Origin: Clostridia bacterium
GTDB lineage: Bacteria; Bacillota; Clostridia; TANB77; CAG-508
Length of the DNA stretch: 64,000 nt
NCBI GenBank assembly: GCA_017626365.1
Contig: JAGAIV010000001.1
Coordinates: 31,429-95,428, forward strand
Direction: 5' to 3'
Shown here: positions 1 through 48,546 of the stretch, piece after piece
Numbering within the stretch: position 1 is the stretch's first letter
Layout of the letters: each line of letters starts with the position of its first letter
Program-made: the position numbers and the translations under genes
Notes under the pieces: generated by a model
The model's database searches: none
What the model was told of the DNA's origin: nothing
Seen by the model: only the letters and a program-made list of their open reading frames with translations

Positions 1-907
1 TTTCAAGTTCAGCACCTAGAGTTGCTTGTGTAAAGGTGATTGGAATTGTACAAAGTACGTTATAATCTTGACGAGTATAAATACTATGTCTTTTGATATG
101 TACTGTTATGTATAAATCTCCTTTTGGTCCACCTTTTTGTCCTGGTGCTCCTTCTCCTCTTAATACTACTGTTTGATTTTCATCAATTCCTGCTGGGATT
201 TTTACTTTAATTCTTGCTTGTTTTCGAACTGTTCCTTTTCCACGGCAGTTTTCACATGGTTCTTTTATTACTTTTCCTTCTCCATGACAAGTAGGACAGG
301 TTCTTGTAGTCTGCATTTGTCCAAGAATCGTCGTTTGCATTTGCTTAATTTGACCTGTTCCATGGCACATGGTACAAGTTTCTACTTTACTTCCTGGCTT
401 TGCTCCACTTCCATGGCAAGTATCACAAGTATCTTCACGACTGATACTAATTTCTTTTTCTACTCCTAGAAAAGATTCCTCAAAACTAATTTCCATATTG
501 TATCTTAAATCTGCACCTTTTATAGGTCCATTATTCTGTTTTGTAGAACCTCTTCCTCCAAAGCCTCCTCCAAAGAAAGAAGAAAAGATGTCTCCTAAAT
601 CTTCCATATCAAATCCATCAAAACCTGATGTAGAATATGAATAATATCCTCCACCTGGTCCGCCACCACCAAAACCTTGTGGTCCGTCTGGTCCAAATTG
701 GTCATACATTCTTCTTTTTTGAGGATCTGATAGAGTCTCGTAAGCTTCATTTACTTCTTTGAATTTTGCTTCTGCTTCTTTTTTATTATCCGGGTTTGCA
801 TCAGGGTGATATTTTTTAGCAAGTTTACGATATGCTCTTTTTAACTCATCATCACTTACATTTTTATCAACACCTAATACCTCATAATAATCTCTTTTTT
901 CAGCCAT
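1..907 (-). CDS. dnaJ: Chaperone DnaJ (C-terminus cut by window edge)
   Basis: Reverse translation from ATG 907..905 gives [42 protein letters not shown] (J domain with HPD). This is followed by a G/F-rich linker and CxxCxGxG zinc-finger repeats ([16 protein letters not shown]). It lies downstream of dnaK. It is absent from the ORF track because it runs off the window. Confidence 0.93.
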
Positions 908-978: not shown

Positions 979-2856
<1,878 letters not shown>

Positions 2857-2914
2857 TTATTTTTTGATTTTTCTTTCTTTTGTATAATTTATTTAAAAAA
2901 ATTTAATAACAATA

Positions 2915-7348: not shown

Positions 7349-8209
7349 TCAAATTTCTATTCCTTGATTTTTTTCTTTCAAGAACATATTGCAAATTTGG
7401 TTCACTTCTGTTTCTAACCTATGCTTGTATCGGTCATTTATAGCATCTGTTTTTAATGTTGTGATTGTATCATATTCTGGGTAATGTTCTTCAATATATT
7501 CTTTCATTTCTTTACTCATTGGGCCTTTTATGGCAAGTTTGATATCAATTCCTGAAATCTGTCTTGCTCTTAAAAATTTACGATAAACGTTTCTTATTTC
7601 ATGAATTTCTCGGTCATCTGTTATTCCCTTTTTATTTCTGTCGATTGCTCTTGCATATTTAGAATCTAAAAATAAGGAATAATACTCAAAACGATTTTCT
7701 TTTTCTAACTCATTTAAATAACACAATACATTAAATACTTCTCCTGCCCAAGCACTTTTTTGATTTAATTGATTTAAATATTGTTCACCTGAATATAAAT
7801 GATATTTTTCTTGTACTTCATCTGAATATCCATGTGTTGTAAAGAAAATTCCTGAAAAATCCTCATATTTAACACAAGAAATAGCGCCATTTTTTTCTGT
7901 TTCTGAAATCTTTTGATTAAACATTTTATTTACACTAATGGAATCAATATTTATGCTATCATAGAAATATTTTCTATGCTTTGGATCATCATGAAGTGAA
8001 GTAAATCTTTCAAGTTGCACAATTAATTCTAAAATTGATTGTTTATCTAATTCATAACCATCTTTTCTAGTTTCAAACCCCATTTTTCTATGTGTGTCTG
8101 CAAGCATTTTTGTTCCACCCGCAATAATCCACTTTAAAACCTCATCCTTGTTTTCCAAACCATAAAAGAAATATTTTTCAAACCATTCCTTTTTTAATTC
8201 TCTTTGCAA
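7349..8209 (-). CDS. Hypothetical protein (286 aa), no recognisable family
   Basis: Long uninterrupted ORF with a TTG start preceded by GAGGAG. I recognise no motif. Confidence 0.55.
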   Translation of the reverse strand: MQRELKKEWFEKYFFYGLENKDEVLKWIIAGGTKMLADTHRKMGFETRKDGYELDKQSILELIVQLERFTSLHDDPKHRKYFYDSINIDSISVNKMFNQKISETEKNGAISCVKYEDFSGIFFTTHGYSDEVQEKYHLYSGEQYLNQLNQKSAWAGEVFNVLCYLNELEKENRFEYYSLFLDSKYARAIDRNKKGITDDREIHEIRNVYRKFLRARQISGIDIKLAIKGPMSKEMKEYIEEHYPEYDTITTLKTDAINDRYKHRLETEVNQICNMFLKEKNQGIEI

Positions 8210-8335
8210 TTTTGTTCACTCCTCGTGTGATGCTTATTACTAAGTTTTTCTACATTATATCGAATGATAATATTTTTTTCAAGGATAATAAGTAAAAAGT
8301 GAATAGTTCATTGTGACTTGCTAAGTCCGCACATT

Positions 8336-8409
<74 letters not shown>

Positions 8410-9484: not shown

Positions 9485-9558
<74 letters not shown>

Positions 9559-43247: not shown

Positions 43248-44471
43248 ATGTTAGAATCAAAATCAATTTACGATGTTTTAAAAGAAAGAGATTTAATCAA
43301 ACAAATTACATTTGAAGATGAATTTAAAAAATTAGCCGAAGAAGAAAAATTTTCTGTATATTTAGGAATTGACCCTACTGCTGATAGTATTCATATTGGT
43401 CATTTTATTCCCCTTATGATGATGTCATATTTTCAAAAATGTGGCCATCGCCCTATTATTTTGATTGGTGGTGGAACTGCATTTATTGGTGACCCAAGTG
43501 GAAAAACCGATATGAGAAAAATGCTTACTAAAGAAGAAATTTCAAAAAATGTTGATAATATTATCAAACAAGTAAGCAAATTTGTTTCTTTTGAAGGAGA
43601 AAATGCTGCTATTATTATGAATAATGGTGATTGGATTTTAGATTTAAACTATATGGAATTTATTCGTACCTATGGTATTTATTTTAATGTTAACCGTATG
43701 CTTGATGCAGAATGTTTTAAACAACGTATGGAAAAAGGTCTTACCTTTTTCGAATTAAACTACATGTTAATGCAAAGTTATGATTTCTTACATTTGTTTG
43801 AAGAAAAAGGATGCAAAGTTGAAATTGGTGGAGATGATCAATGGTCCAACATGCTTGCAGGTGTTGATTTAATTCGTAAAATTCATCAGAATGGAAGCTT
43901 TTGTGTTACTTGCCCACTTTTATTAAATGCAGAAGGTAAAAAAATGGGAAAAACCGTTAGTGGTGCTTTATGGTTAGATGCTTCTAAAACTTCTCCATAT
44001 GAATTTTATCAATACTGGAGAAATATTGGAGATAGCGAAGTTTATGATGTATTAAGAATGCTTACCTATTTACCAATGGAAGAAGTAAAAAGACTTGCTT
44101 CTTTACCTGGTGAACAAATTAATGAAGCCAAAAAAGTCGCTGCTTTTGAAATTACAAAATTAATTCATGGTGAGGAAGAAGCTCTAAAAGCCCAAGAAGC
44201 TTCAAAAGCATTATTTGAAGGAACCGGTTCTTTGGAAAATATGCCTACTGTAAAAGTAGATAGTACAAATATTTCAGTTGTAGATGCTATTATTTTAACA
44301 GGTATTGCTCCATCAAAAGGTCAAGCAAGAACTTTAATTTCTCAAGGTGGTATTAGTTTAAATGATATAAAAATAGAAGATACAACTTATATGTTGTCTG
44401 ATGACGATTTTAAAGAAGGTTATGCTATTTTGAAAAAAGGAAAAAAGGTATTTTATAAATTAGAGAAATAA
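43248..44471 (+). CDS. tyrS: Tyrosine--tRNA ligase
   Basis: 407 aa with HIGH (SIHIGH), KMGKT, and a C-terminal S4-like domain. Confidence 0.96.
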   Translation: MLESKSIYDVLKERDLIKQITFEDEFKKLAEEEKFSVYLGIDPTADSIHIGHFIPLMMMSYFQKCGHRPIILIGGGTAFIGDPSGKTDMRKMLTKEEISKNVDNIIKQVSKFVSFEGENAAIIMNNGDWILDLNYMEFIRTYGIYFNVNRMLDAECFKQRMEKGLTFFELNYMLMQSYDFLHLFEEKGCKVEIGGDDQWSNMLAGVDLIRKIHQNGSFCVTCPLLLNAEGKKMGKTVSGALWLDASKTSPYEFYQYWRNIGDSEVYDVLRMLTYLPMEEVKRLASLPGEQINEAKKVAAFEITKLIHGEEEALKAQEASKALFEGTGSLENMPTVKVDSTNISVVDAIILTGIAPSKGQARTLISQGGISLNDIKIEDTTYMLSDDDFKEGYAILKKGKKVFYKLEK

Positions 44472-46914: not shown

Positions 46915-47304
46915 TTATTCTTCGAAACAATTAACTGGTGCCTTTTTTTCTTCTCTTATAAGCATTATATCAAATACAATAAACCCTATAAATGAGACAC
47001 CAAACACTACAGTTACTATAATTTTATAACTATCCATTAAAGTACCAAATAAACTTAAAATAAATGTTATTATTGTTGTCGTCATACAGATTCCTGTTGC
47101 TGCTGTTATAAGCCATGATCTCATATTTTTCTTATGAATCATTTCTTCAATTGCTGTTGTAGTAAGAACTATTCCGGCGAAATATGCTAAAGAAAAATAA
47201 ATTATTCCTCCTGTAGGATAATCTATTATATCCCTTATAGCTATCTGAATAGCAACTACAATAATTGCACTAATTATTAAGCACCAAATTTTGCTCCGTC
47301 TCAT
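46915..47304 (-). CDS. Hypothetical 4-TM membrane protein (129 aa)
   Basis: Hydrophobic ORF followed by a palindromic hairpin AAGGTGAATTTCACCTT. Confidence 0.5.
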   Translation of the reverse strand: MRRSKIWCLIISAIIVVAIQIAIRDIIDYPTGGIIYFSLAYFAGIVLTTTAIEEMIHKKNMRSWLITAATGICMTTTIITFILSLFGTLMDSYKIIVTVVFGVSFIGFIVFDIMLIREEKKAPVNCFEE

Positions 47305-47419
47305 ATTGTACCTCTCTTTCTACCTAAAAATTATTTTATTGGTTTCTCTATAAAAATGCTTTCTATCATTTTTATATGTGAATCATACCACATTTCTATA
47401 TAATTTTCAATATATTCTC

Positions 47420-47800
47420 TTATTTCACTCTATATATTTCATACTTATCGCATAAGTTTAACGTGGTTCTATTACTTATTACTTCTTTTGGTATTAAATA
47501 CATATCAATGTTATCTGTAACTATAAATAGATAATCGATATCAGTATCTACTAACGTTTTATATGTTGTCCCTTTTGTACCTCCGCAACTTTTTAATGCA
47601 ACTTGATAATTTCCATATTTTGTTTTACAACTTGTTGCTTTTACTTGTACTCCATAATAATGATTTTCTTTTTCAATTACTAAATCATAATCTTGTGTAT
47701 CATTCAATGGAATAGATACTACATACCCATTTGTACTAAAATATGCAATTGCAATTCCTAATGCGGAATTTCCTTTTTCTTTATTGGTAATAAAATTCAT
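47420..47800 (-). CDS. PD-(D/E)XK endonuclease of the group I intron-associated type (PDDEXK_5-like)
   Basis: 126 aa. KGNSALGIAIAYFSTNGYVVSIPLNDTQDYDLVIEKENHYYGVQVKAT carries the D...(D/E)xK core (DYDLVIE...VQVK). The rest, ...DIDYLFIV..DMYLIP, is family-like. Confidence 0.7.
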   Translation of the reverse strand: MNFITNKEKGNSALGIAIAYFSTNGYVVSIPLNDTQDYDLVIEKENHYYGVQVKATSCKTKYGNYQVALKSCGGTKGTTYKTLVDTDIDYLFIVTDNIDMYLIPKEVISNRTTLNLCDKYEIYRVK

Positions 47801-47942: not shown

Positions 47943-47965
47943 ACGCGACTGCTAAGTCGCACTTA

Positions 47966-48270
47966 TGGTGGACAGGGAAGGATTCGAACCTTCGTACTCG
48001 TATGAGAACAGATTTCTTACTACTATAGTTTTCACTACCAATTTCTTGTTTGTAGTCTGGACTTTCTCTTTATCTTTTTAAGATACCAGGTATAAAGTCT
48101 CTACACTCGGAAATTTCTTTCCTAGCTCGGGATTATCATCAGCTTAAACTGTTAAGACTTCCCCGAATTAGCCCGGTTTTCACCACAAAATCACTTTTGT
48201 GGGCTGCAATTTCTGCTTTTATAAAGCAAAGCATACAGTCTGCCGCCTTTAGCCACTCGGCCACCTGTCC
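47966..48270 (-). tRNA. tRNA-Tyr(GUA) interrupted by a group I intron
   Basis: The 5' part is GGACAGGTGGCCGAGTGGCTAAAGGCGGCAGACTGT. The 3' part is AAATCTGTTCTCATACGAGTACGAAGGTTCGAATCCTTCCCTGTCCACCA. Joined, they form a class II tRNA with loop CTGTAAA, a long variable arm, and paired acceptor GGACAGG/CCTGTCC. Confidence 0.88.
48016..48234 (-). ncRNA. Group I intron (small, IC3-like, ORF-less), about 219 nt
   Basis: Inserted after U35 of the anticodon and ends in G. Core strings CUAAUUCGGGGAAGUCUUAAC and CCGAGUGUAGAGACUUUAUACC resemble the Azoarcus tRNA-Ile intron (UCAAAUUCGGCGAAACCUAAGC and GAAGGUGUAGAGACUAGACGG). A candidate guide sequence UUGCAG could pair with exon CUGU, giving U-G at the splice site. 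Exact junctions are inferred. Confidence 0.75.
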
Positions 48271-48338: not shown

Positions 48339-48415
48339 TGGTGCGCCCTCAAGGATTCGAACCTTGGACCCACCGGTTATGAGCCGGTTGCTCTGACCAA
48401 CTGAGCTAAGGGCGC
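48339..48415 (-). tRNA. tRNA with CAU anticodon (elongator Met, or Ile2 if lysidine-modified)
   Basis: GCGCCCTTAGCTCAGTTGGTCAGAGCAACCGGCTCATAACCGGTGGGTCCAAGGTTCGAATCCTTGAGGGCGCACCA. G1-C72 and no GGG/CCC anticodon stem, so it is not an initiator. Confidence 0.85.
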
Positions 48416-48422
48416 ATGTCAG

Positions 48423-48496
<74 letters not shown>

Positions 48497-48517: not shown

Positions 48518-48546
48518 ATTATAAGGGTTATTATATTGTTTGTCAA
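48518..48546 (-). promoter_or_regulatory. Consensus promoter for the tRNA-Gly/Met/Tyr cluster
   Basis: Minus strand TTGACA-N17-TATAAT, about 21 nt upstream of tRNA-Gly. Confidence 0.6.

Follow-up and report, generated by a model that had tools for sequence, protein, structure and literature searches.

A group I intron in a tRNA-Tyr(GUA) gene of uncultured gut Clostridia and its likely homing partner, a free-standing PD-(D/E)XK endonuclease gene

Bacterial tRNA genes can harbor small group I introns of the IC3 type, ribozymes of about 200–250 nucleotides (nt) that lie in the anticodon loop and fold into paired regions P1 to P9 without a P5abc extension. Those considered here interrupt cyanobacterial and plastid tRNA-Leu(UAA), cyanobacterial tRNA-fMet, Azoarcus tRNA-Ile(CAU), Agrobacterium tRNA-Arg(CCU), and Burkholderia tRNA-Leu, and the hosts named in reviews and tRNA resources are confined to Leu, fMet, Ile, and Arg, all of them from cyanobacteria or from alpha- and betaproteobacteria. 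The present analysis concerns a stretch of 64,000 nt, hereafter the window, from a Clostridia bacterium (contig JAGAIV010000001.1 of assembly GCA_017626365.1, positions 31,429 to 95,428 of the forward strand). On its minus strand, a tRNA-Tyr(GUA) gene (48270..47966) is split by a 219-nt insert that is almost certainly a group I intron, and a gene for a putative homing endonuclease lies just downstream. The intron resembles the known IC3 tRNA introns in size, location, and overall fold, as well as in its Rfam-consensus core strings (AAUU-P4-GAA, UAAUCC, and AGACU...AGUC), its U.G wobble, and its terminal G. Unlike them, it resides in a tRNA-Tyr(GUA) gene, is inserted between positions 35 and 36 (the second and third anticodon bases), scores below the Rfam cut-off, and carries a P9 three-way junction with an invariant GAAA hairpin. 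Its host, an uncultured gut member of the Clostridia (Bacillota), is neither a cyanobacterium nor a proteobacterium.

Three further systems offer points of comparison. The homing endonuclease I-Ssp6803I (PDB 2OST) shares with the downstream gene product the PF11645 family, a D...QxK motif, and an association with a tRNA anticodon-loop group I intron; however, I-Ssp6803I is encoded inside the Synechocystis tRNA-fMet intron and has about 150 amino acids (aa), whereas the enzyme of the window is shorter (126 aa) and free-standing, 165 nt downstream of the tRNA. Phage collaborative homing likewise combines an intron without an open reading frame (ORF) with an endonuclease gene beside the interrupted gene, the two having inserted separately and the intact endonuclease occurring with intron-bearing alleles only. 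In contrast to those phage protein-coding genes, the locus described here is a tRNA gene on a bacterial chromosome, and its nuclease is of the PD-(D/E)XK type instead of HNH or Endo VII-like. The introns of gut jumbo (Jug) phages share the gut habitat, the lack of an ORF, a comparable size (about 206 nt in the phages), and the company of stand-alone PDDEXK_5 genes, but they interrupt protein-coding genes of Bacteroides phages and not a bacterial tRNA gene (PMC12880540). Full-text literature searches, which did not reach subscription-only papers, retrieved no bacterial tRNA-Tyr group I intron, although a 2025 intron database may hold such entries without discussing them. The suspicion of an unusual host, voiced in an original prediction made from the letters of the window alone, is therefore borne out by the sources consulted. 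Taken singly, the components are all of known types; the novelty lies in the host tRNA, the insertion position, the lineage, the habitat, a free-standing PD-(D/E)XK partner adjoining a tRNA gene of a bacterium, and the range of homing-cycle stages found together.

The 5′ exon (48235..48270, minus strand, 36 nt; GGACAGGUGGCCGAGUGGCUAAAGGCGGCAGACUGU) comprises the 5′ acceptor strand, the D arm, the 5′ strand of the anticodon stem, and C32, U33, G34, and U35, and ends in GCAGACUGU. The 3′ exon (47966..48015, minus strand, 50 nt; AAAUCUGUUCUCAUACGAGUACGAAGGUUCGAAUCCUUCCCUGUCCACCA) begins with AAAUCUGU and supplies A36, A37, and A38, the 3′ strand of the anticodon stem, a long variable arm, the T arm, and the 3′ acceptor strand with ACCA, so that the CCA end is encoded. 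Between them, the insert (48234..48016) opens with AUGC and closes with GUAAG. When introns are allowed, ARAGORN reports tRNA-Tyr(gta) i(37,219), and joining the exons gives a clean tRNA-Tyr(GUA) of 86 nt whose variable arm is long; in its default mode, the program calls neither this split gene nor any other tRNA-Tyr gene in the window. The window alone leaves the insertion site ambiguous by a single base, but in ten related species the intron opens with G (GACUGU/GGUC..., the slash marking the junction), which fixes the site between U35 and A36. The original prediction had proposed this site, the two halves about 219 nt apart, and the lack of a second tRNA-Tyr gene in the window, and it holds on each count, the separation being exactly 219 nt. 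The best explanation of the locus is a housekeeping gene, that for tRNA-Tyr(GUA), in an uncultured gut Clostridia bacterium of low guanine plus cytosine content (about 30% in the window).

The insert matches the Rfam model Intron_gpI (RF00028) over its full length (model positions 1–253, window 48238..48035) with an expectation value (E) of 6.4e-10 and 44.5 bits, under the gathering score of 50 bits, which is a curated score cut-off and not a biological criterion. The intron (48016..48234, minus strand) contains no same-strand ORF of at least 50 aa. Its predicted fold is more stable than those of all 200 shuffled sequences (z = −4.2), and its core pattern occurs once in the window and in none of 100 shuffles. 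The two core elements quoted in the original prediction as IC3-like are AAUUCGGGGAAGUCUUAAC, at 48169..48151, and GAGUGUAGAGACU, at 48108..48096, both on the minus strand. That prediction of a small, ORF-less group I intron following a U and ending in G thus agrees with the model match, the conserved splice-site bases, and the covariation described below; the Intron_gpI scan it had proposed gave a statistically significant hit that stays short of the gathering score.

In P1, which encloses a variable P1a hairpin (48204..48238, minus strand), exon bases C32 to U35 and the first intron bases pair with an internal guide, UUGCAG (48209..48204). U35 (48235) faces a G of this guide, and the resulting U.G wobble, which marks the 5′ splice site, is kept in all 71 aligned sequences, while P1a covaries. 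The P2 hairpin (48183..48202, minus strand) is always closed by a GNRA tetraloop, GUGA here and GUGA, GUAA, GAAA, GCAA, or GGAA across the alignment, with double changes in each of its eight pairs. The catalytic core (48071..48176, minus strand) runs through the 5′ strand of P3, J3/4, P4, P5/P5a, P6/P6a, J6/7, the 5′ strand of P7, the 3′ strand of P3, and P8. Covariation affects 3/5 pairs of P3, 3/3 of P5a, 5/7 of P6, and 3/6 of P8, and the P5 pair takes four Watson–Crick types. The 3′ strand of P7, AGUCC (48059..48063, minus strand), pairs with GAGACU (48101..48096), leaving one A bulged, and so creates the P3/P7 pseudoknot and presumably the guanosine-binding site; it is invariant in 71/71 sequences and agrees with the Rfam consensus AGACU...AGUC. 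The P9 three-way domain (48019..48056, minus strand) consists of P9, a variable P9a hairpin with double changes in 3/3 pairs, and a P9b hairpin (48038..48025) with an invariant GAAA loop and double changes in 4/5 pairs. The terminal G (omega-G, 48016, minus strand) stands directly before the 3′ exon AAAUCUG, and 71/71 homologs read ...G/AAAUCUG. The compact position in an anticodon loop, a single P5–P5a hairpin, a GNRA loop on P2, and GAAA in L9b conform to the IC3 architecture, as does the absence of the P5(a–d) elements that IC3 introns lack (PMC11835236). Because Rfam has one model for all group I introns, the label is given as IC3-like, on architecture and host site only.

At E ≤ 1e-3, Rfam did not detect the introns of two gut relatives (loci L006 and L009), so family membership had to come from alignment and covariation. 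The P4 pattern alone (AATTCGGGGAAG...TAATCCCGAG) proved too broad, with matches in many host genes on at least 120 phage contigs, and the end of the tRNA-Tyr exon, GACTGT, was therefore added to both P4 strands for a scan of one genome per GTDB species. Of the 73 loci found, 68 share the split tRNA-Tyr(GUA) gene, interrupted at precisely this position by 214–250 nt. Their host species are almost all uncultured Clostridia from the guts of humans, goats, sheep, rabbits, and other animals, including 'Clostridium sp. CAG:508, CAG:567 and CAG:575', a breadth of occurrence that the original prediction had missed. The closest species representative to the window is an uncultured Clostridia metagenome-assembled genome (MAG), L199, with about 85% nucleotide identity. 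An explicit model of P1 to P9 and the tRNA cloverleaf was drawn on the window sequence and applied to an alignment of 71 distinct pre-tRNAs. In this model, 98.2% of the cells are paired, and compensatory double changes occur in 50 of 94 pairs. Controls in which partners were slid by one to three columns gave 11–17 such pairs and about 40% of cells paired, and none of 500 shuffles reached the observed values. P2, P3, P5, P5a, P6, P8, P9a, and P9b all covary, and the core helices P3 to P8 are present, P4 and P7 being fully paired and invariant. The tRNA stems covary as well (5/7 acceptor pairs, 3/3 in the D arm, 2/3 in the variable arm, and 3/5 in the T arm), which indicates that the exons are selected as a working tRNA and hence that accurate splicing is required. 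On these comparative grounds, the ribozyme part of the reading appears secure, and the split gene very probably splices to a functional product.

The downstream gene (47420..47800, minus strand), also overlooked in the original prediction, starts 165 nt past the CCA end of tRNA-Tyr and encodes a predicted PD-(D/E)XK homing endonuclease of the I-Ssp6803I family. Its product matches Pfam PF11645 with 61.5 bits (E 1e-16; cut-off 26.1), and its best and only significant PDB match is 2OST, at an E of about 1e-4 and 26–27% identity by both single-sequence and profile comparison. A block reading PLNDTQDYDL...QxK is invariant, and within it the catalytic segment YDL...VQVK aligns with 2OST. A structure model, used solely to back this sequence match, returned four 2OST chains at the top of a Foldseek search (E 4e-4 to 3e-3), followed by Hjc resolvases; the modeled fold and the catalytic D...(D/E/Q)xK residues thus appear to be those of this group of nucleases. 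NCBIfam contains no match for this ORF or for the next one; a homolog with 76% identity carries the NCBI name 'group I intron-associated PD-(D/E)XK endonuclease', and the protein family comprises at least 1,905 clusters. I-Ssp6803I works as a tetramer and recognizes a pseudo-palindromic target of 23 bp, and its close homologs were described in a 2012 review as 'generally encoded in cyanobacteria' (PMC3384342). In all 33 bacterial loci where the gene was found beside a split tRNA-Tyr, it is free-standing downstream and not encoded inside the intron that it would mobilize. The spot itself is variable: at the same place as the endonuclease gene and a 129-aa membrane-like ORF without a family match (window 46915–47800), L199 carries a DinD-like ORF (2128–2910, minus strand) and a TspO-like ORF (1557–2033, minus strand). 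Comparison of these two sequences reveals no clean cassette boundary, the region 3′ of the tRNA simply being different.

The distribution of the two elements connects them. Among the 68 species with the split gene, the endonuclease follows on the same strand in 33 and is missing from about 28 that have space enough for it, while 7 could not be judged. In most of the 33, it begins 58–130 nt past the CCA end, although the genes beyond it vary. Homologs retrieved through protein identity from contigs of the human gut, with quite different neighbors, show the same order of tRNA-Met, split tRNA-Tyr, about 70 nt of spacer, and endonuclease. Intact copies number 31 of 33, with a median pairwise ratio of nonsynonymous to synonymous substitution rates (dN/dS) of 0.23, which points to purifying selection on the gene; one copy is a 28-aa remnant. 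A search of metagenome contigs for the spliced junction found unsplit tRNA-Tyr alleles to be common (at least 120 loci). Of these, 42 are identical to the ligated exons of intron-bearing species in at least 84 of 86 positions, 20 of them completely, and most share the tRNA-Met neighbor. The endonuclease was sought in the 31 intronless alleles with at least 600 nt of downstream sequence: an intact copy accompanies 31/61 intron-bearing loci and 0/31 of these near-identical intronless ones (Fisher p = 9e-8, ignoring phylogeny). The sole intronless allele with an adjacent endonuclease, L272, has a copy truncated to 65 aa. Compared with the intron-bearing L190, L272 lacks the intron with single-nucleotide precision, and the flanks of the two are 98–99% identical. 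A second pair, L202 and L139, reveals the endonuclease cassette as a separate indel of about 440 nt that starts 26 nt past the CCA end. An ORF-less intron with an adjacent endonuclease, an intact endonuclease confined to intron-bearing alleles, and empty sites in relatives together constitute the pattern expected of collaborative homing. It is reasonably likely that intron and endonuclease form such a two-part element, a part of the reading that we infer from this distribution.

Phage sequences extend the picture for both components. More than 120 IMG/VR phage contigs contain the core strings of the intron, which lie there in protein-coding genes as well as in numerous tRNA genes. One phage contig, L026 (IMGVR_UViG_3300014047_000002, 99 kb), carries a tRNA-Tyr(GTA) gene split at the same U35/A36 site (7958–8250, minus strand) by a more divergent group I intron of 208 nt, CCAGACTGT/AAGA...TTTG/AAATCTGG. 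Among the phage matches to the pattern, it is the only tRNA-Tyr gene split at that site, the other five matches lying in protein-coding genes. Group I introns of about 185–300 nt with the same core were also observed in phage tRNA genes for Arg(TCT), Arg(CCG), Leu(TAA), Gln(CTG), Thr(CGT), and Met(CAT), on IMG/VR contigs L019, L031, L033, L037, L038, L041, L060, L065, L076, L078, and L082 and, further, on L084, L092, L105, L110, L116, L118, L121, L122, L125, L130, and L132. Since a 2014 review placed all phage group I introns then known in protein-coding genes, those in phage tRNA genes may be an under-described class. In bacteria, tRNA-Asn(GTT) genes split by group I introns of 195–262 nt were seen in a Gammaproteobacteria MAG and two Patescibacteria MAGs (L145, 2948–3215; L166, 4548–4840; L194, 1199–1533). 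These three related introns pass the Rfam gathering score, at 55–72 bits, and no tRNA-Asn host of a group I intron was found in the literature searched.

Homologs of the endonuclease also occur in phages in several arrangements. On contig L111 (about 8500–7820, minus strand), a homolog with 48% identity lies inside a tRNA group I intron whose host, judging from a 5′ half ending in TGGTCTTGAA, is probably tRNA-Phe(GAA); this ORF contains an in-frame TAG and could belong to a recoded phage or be a pseudogene. On contig L207 (IMGVR_UViG_3300020201_000012, 1329–1920), a cassette of 507 nt that lacks a ribozyme interrupts the anticodon loop of a phage tRNA-Tyr gene. It holds another complete tRNA-Tyr, whose anticodon stem differs, as well as an ORF for a PDDEXK_5 endonuclease. 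The split falls at CUGUA/AAUC, and the stop codon of the endonuclease overlaps the CTGTAA of the displaced 3′ half. This arrangement looks like a homing or repair scar and offers circumstantial evidence for cutting at or near the insertion site. In contigs L206 to L218, PDDEXK_5 homologs of 45–59% identity (from position 1501 onward in each) stand free in phage tRNA clusters, often about 40 nt before tRNA-Ser(GCT), an arrangement likened to that of T4 SegB with tRNA arrays.

Taken as a whole, a self-splicing tRNA-Tyr intron accompanied by a downstream homing endonuclease is the best explanation of the locus, and a probable one. The precursor would fold into P1 to P9, an external guanosine would attack after U35 at the U.G wobble of P1, and the freed 5′ exon would then attack after the terminal G of the intron to yield the 86-nt tRNA-Tyr. 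The fold, the splice-site rules, and the selection on ribozyme and exons emerge from comparison among species, and from these we infer the splicing chemistry. The endonuclease would most likely cut intronless tRNA-Tyr DNA in the region of the anticodon arm, and the resident intron, by splitting this cut site, would protect the host gene. If a cut allele were then repaired from a copy that carries the intron, the intron would spread and, by co-conversion over about 120–220 bp, so would the endonuclease cassette, following the 'collaborative homing' scheme described for phages (PMC3984707).

Several observations weigh against this explanation. On the side of the ribozyme, the Intron_gpI match stays below the gathering score, so that the gathering-threshold scan reported none, and none of 15 related tRNA-Tyr introns reaches that score. 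P4, P7, and P9 never vary and give no covariation signal, the invariance of P4 being in part fixed by a search pattern that required it. The count of tRNA-Tyr genes is that of the 64-kb window. On the side of homing, the endonuclease is missing from about half of the species with the intron, and the test of association between the two takes no account of phylogeny. The AlphaFold model of the endonuclease has only modest confidence (predicted local distance difference test, pLDDT, 63), and the reconstructed target shows weak dyad symmetry (5–7 of 11 matches) that is not informative. Moreover, the phage homologs of L214 and L215 adjoin intact tRNA-Tyr genes whose anticodon stems are different. 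Some members of the family thus tolerate an unsplit tRNA-Tyr next to them, a caution that not every member need cut every tRNA-Tyr gene.

The alternative that survives best, though unlikely, accepts a real self-splicing intron and denies that the endonuclease is its homing partner: the gene would be an independent free-standing element with intronless homing to a different site close to tRNA genes, like T4 SegB in its tRNA cluster, or a domesticated nuclease that serves some other role in the cell. An association of SegB-type endonucleases with tRNA arrays is already known (PMC13096335), the phage homologs in tRNA clusters adjoin various unsplit tRNA genes, including those for Ser and Tyr, and both the separate indel of the cassette and its absence from half of the intron-bearing species would suit such independence. 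It accords poorly with the restriction of intact copies to intron-bearing alleles (31/61 against 0/31), where the lone copy on the intronless side is truncated, and with the scar in L207, which falls exactly in the anticodon loop of a tRNA-Tyr gene. As stated in PMC3384342 and in the title of another paper, moreover, the nearest characterized relative cuts a tRNA anticodon region at the site of intron insertion. A partnership of intron and endonuclease for homing is favored on this evidence.

Less probable still is a reading in which intron and endonuclease would also serve for exclusion or defense, in that the chromosomal endonuclease would cut the intronless tRNA-Tyr genes of incoming DNA, including that of phages, which often bring their own tRNA-Tyr, and the intron would immunize the essential gene of the host. 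The intron would then be retained because it licenses a nuclease useful to the host. If true, this would explain purifying selection on the endonuclease in lineages that bear the intron stably.

Dependence of the intron on a protein helper in vivo appears highly unlikely. The candidate would be the tyrosyl-tRNA synthetase (TyrRS), encoded 3.5 kb from the split tRNA-Tyr (43248..44471, plus strand), by analogy with the fungal mitochondrial TyrRS CYT-18, an established precedent that assists group I splicing (PMC4275181). The intron is AT-rich, has weak peripheral helices, and might profit from such help. The TyrRS of the window is, however, an ordinary bacterial enzyme of 407 aa with standard domains only, and its gene is near the locus in the closest relatives only, the gut loci L006 to L012 having other neighbors. 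TyrRS was for this reason rejected as a general cofactor, and its proximity is probably coincidental. Introns of the small IC3 type in tRNA genes, that of Azoarcus for example, self-splice without protein.

Finally, a disabled tRNA-Tyr pseudogene with a decaying or non-catalytic insert, its function covered by another copy, might be suggested by the sub-threshold Rfam score and by a search for a second gene that was confined to the window, but this is scarcely credible when exon and ribozyme helices stay paired through many compensatory changes over 68 species, the core is invariant, the same position after tRNA-Met holds an unsplit gene in relatives, and a consensus promoter lies upstream.

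These results extend bacterial tRNA group I introns to a new isoacceptor, insertion position, phylum, and habitat. They also have a practical side. Detection of group I introns lies outside the design of tRNAscan-SE (PMC8450103), and with this intron missed both by default ARAGORN and at the Rfam cut-off, at least 68 species of gut Clostridia will seem to lack tRNA-Tyr, an apparent loss that skews the quality scores of MAGs as well as conclusions on their genetic code. Should the split gene be the sole source of tRNA-Tyr, ribozyme activity would be essential to these bacteria. The clade displays several stages of homing side by side, with empty sites, the intron alone, the intron with an intact endonuclease, and a decayed endonuclease beside an intronless allele. 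It offers a ready system for studying how ORF-less introns and free-standing endonucleases come together, and it supplies very small AT-rich ribozymes (214–250 nt) and a likely new endonuclease specificity for a tRNA gene.

The split gene is the last of a minus-strand operon of tRNA-Gly, tRNA-Met, and tRNA-Tyr. A sigma-70-type promoter, TTGACA-17-TATAAT (48518..48546, minus strand), is predicted upstream from a sequence match of 12/12 consensus positions. It is followed by tRNA-Gly(UCC), the first gene (48423..48496, minus strand), and by tRNA-Met(CAU), directly 5′ of tRNA-Tyr (48339..48415, minus strand), a neighbor kept in most related loci, intron-bearing and intronless alike. In the 165-nt spacer past the CCA end, a hairpin, GCGACU-UAGC-AGUCGC (47945..47960, minus strand), has no U-run after it, and a terminator scan found none. 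Sub-threshold Rfam matches to 'Plastid-ycf2' and 'Plastid-psbl-rps4' at 48341–48415, 48425–48496, and 47969–48016 (plus strand) fall on the antisense strands of the tRNA genes and were rejected as artefacts, not plastid elements; a tmRNA match near the locus was likewise discarded, these all being antisense or partial tRNA look-alikes. The 64 kb contain three tRNA-Gly(UCC) genes, all on the minus strand (8336–8409, 9485–9558, and 48423–48496), of which the last two are identical over 71 nt in the Rfam alignments. In one of the gut Clostridia MAGs with a split tRNA-Tyr, L157, an OLE (ornate large extremophilic) RNA was detected at 39–576 (minus strand) with 289 bits.

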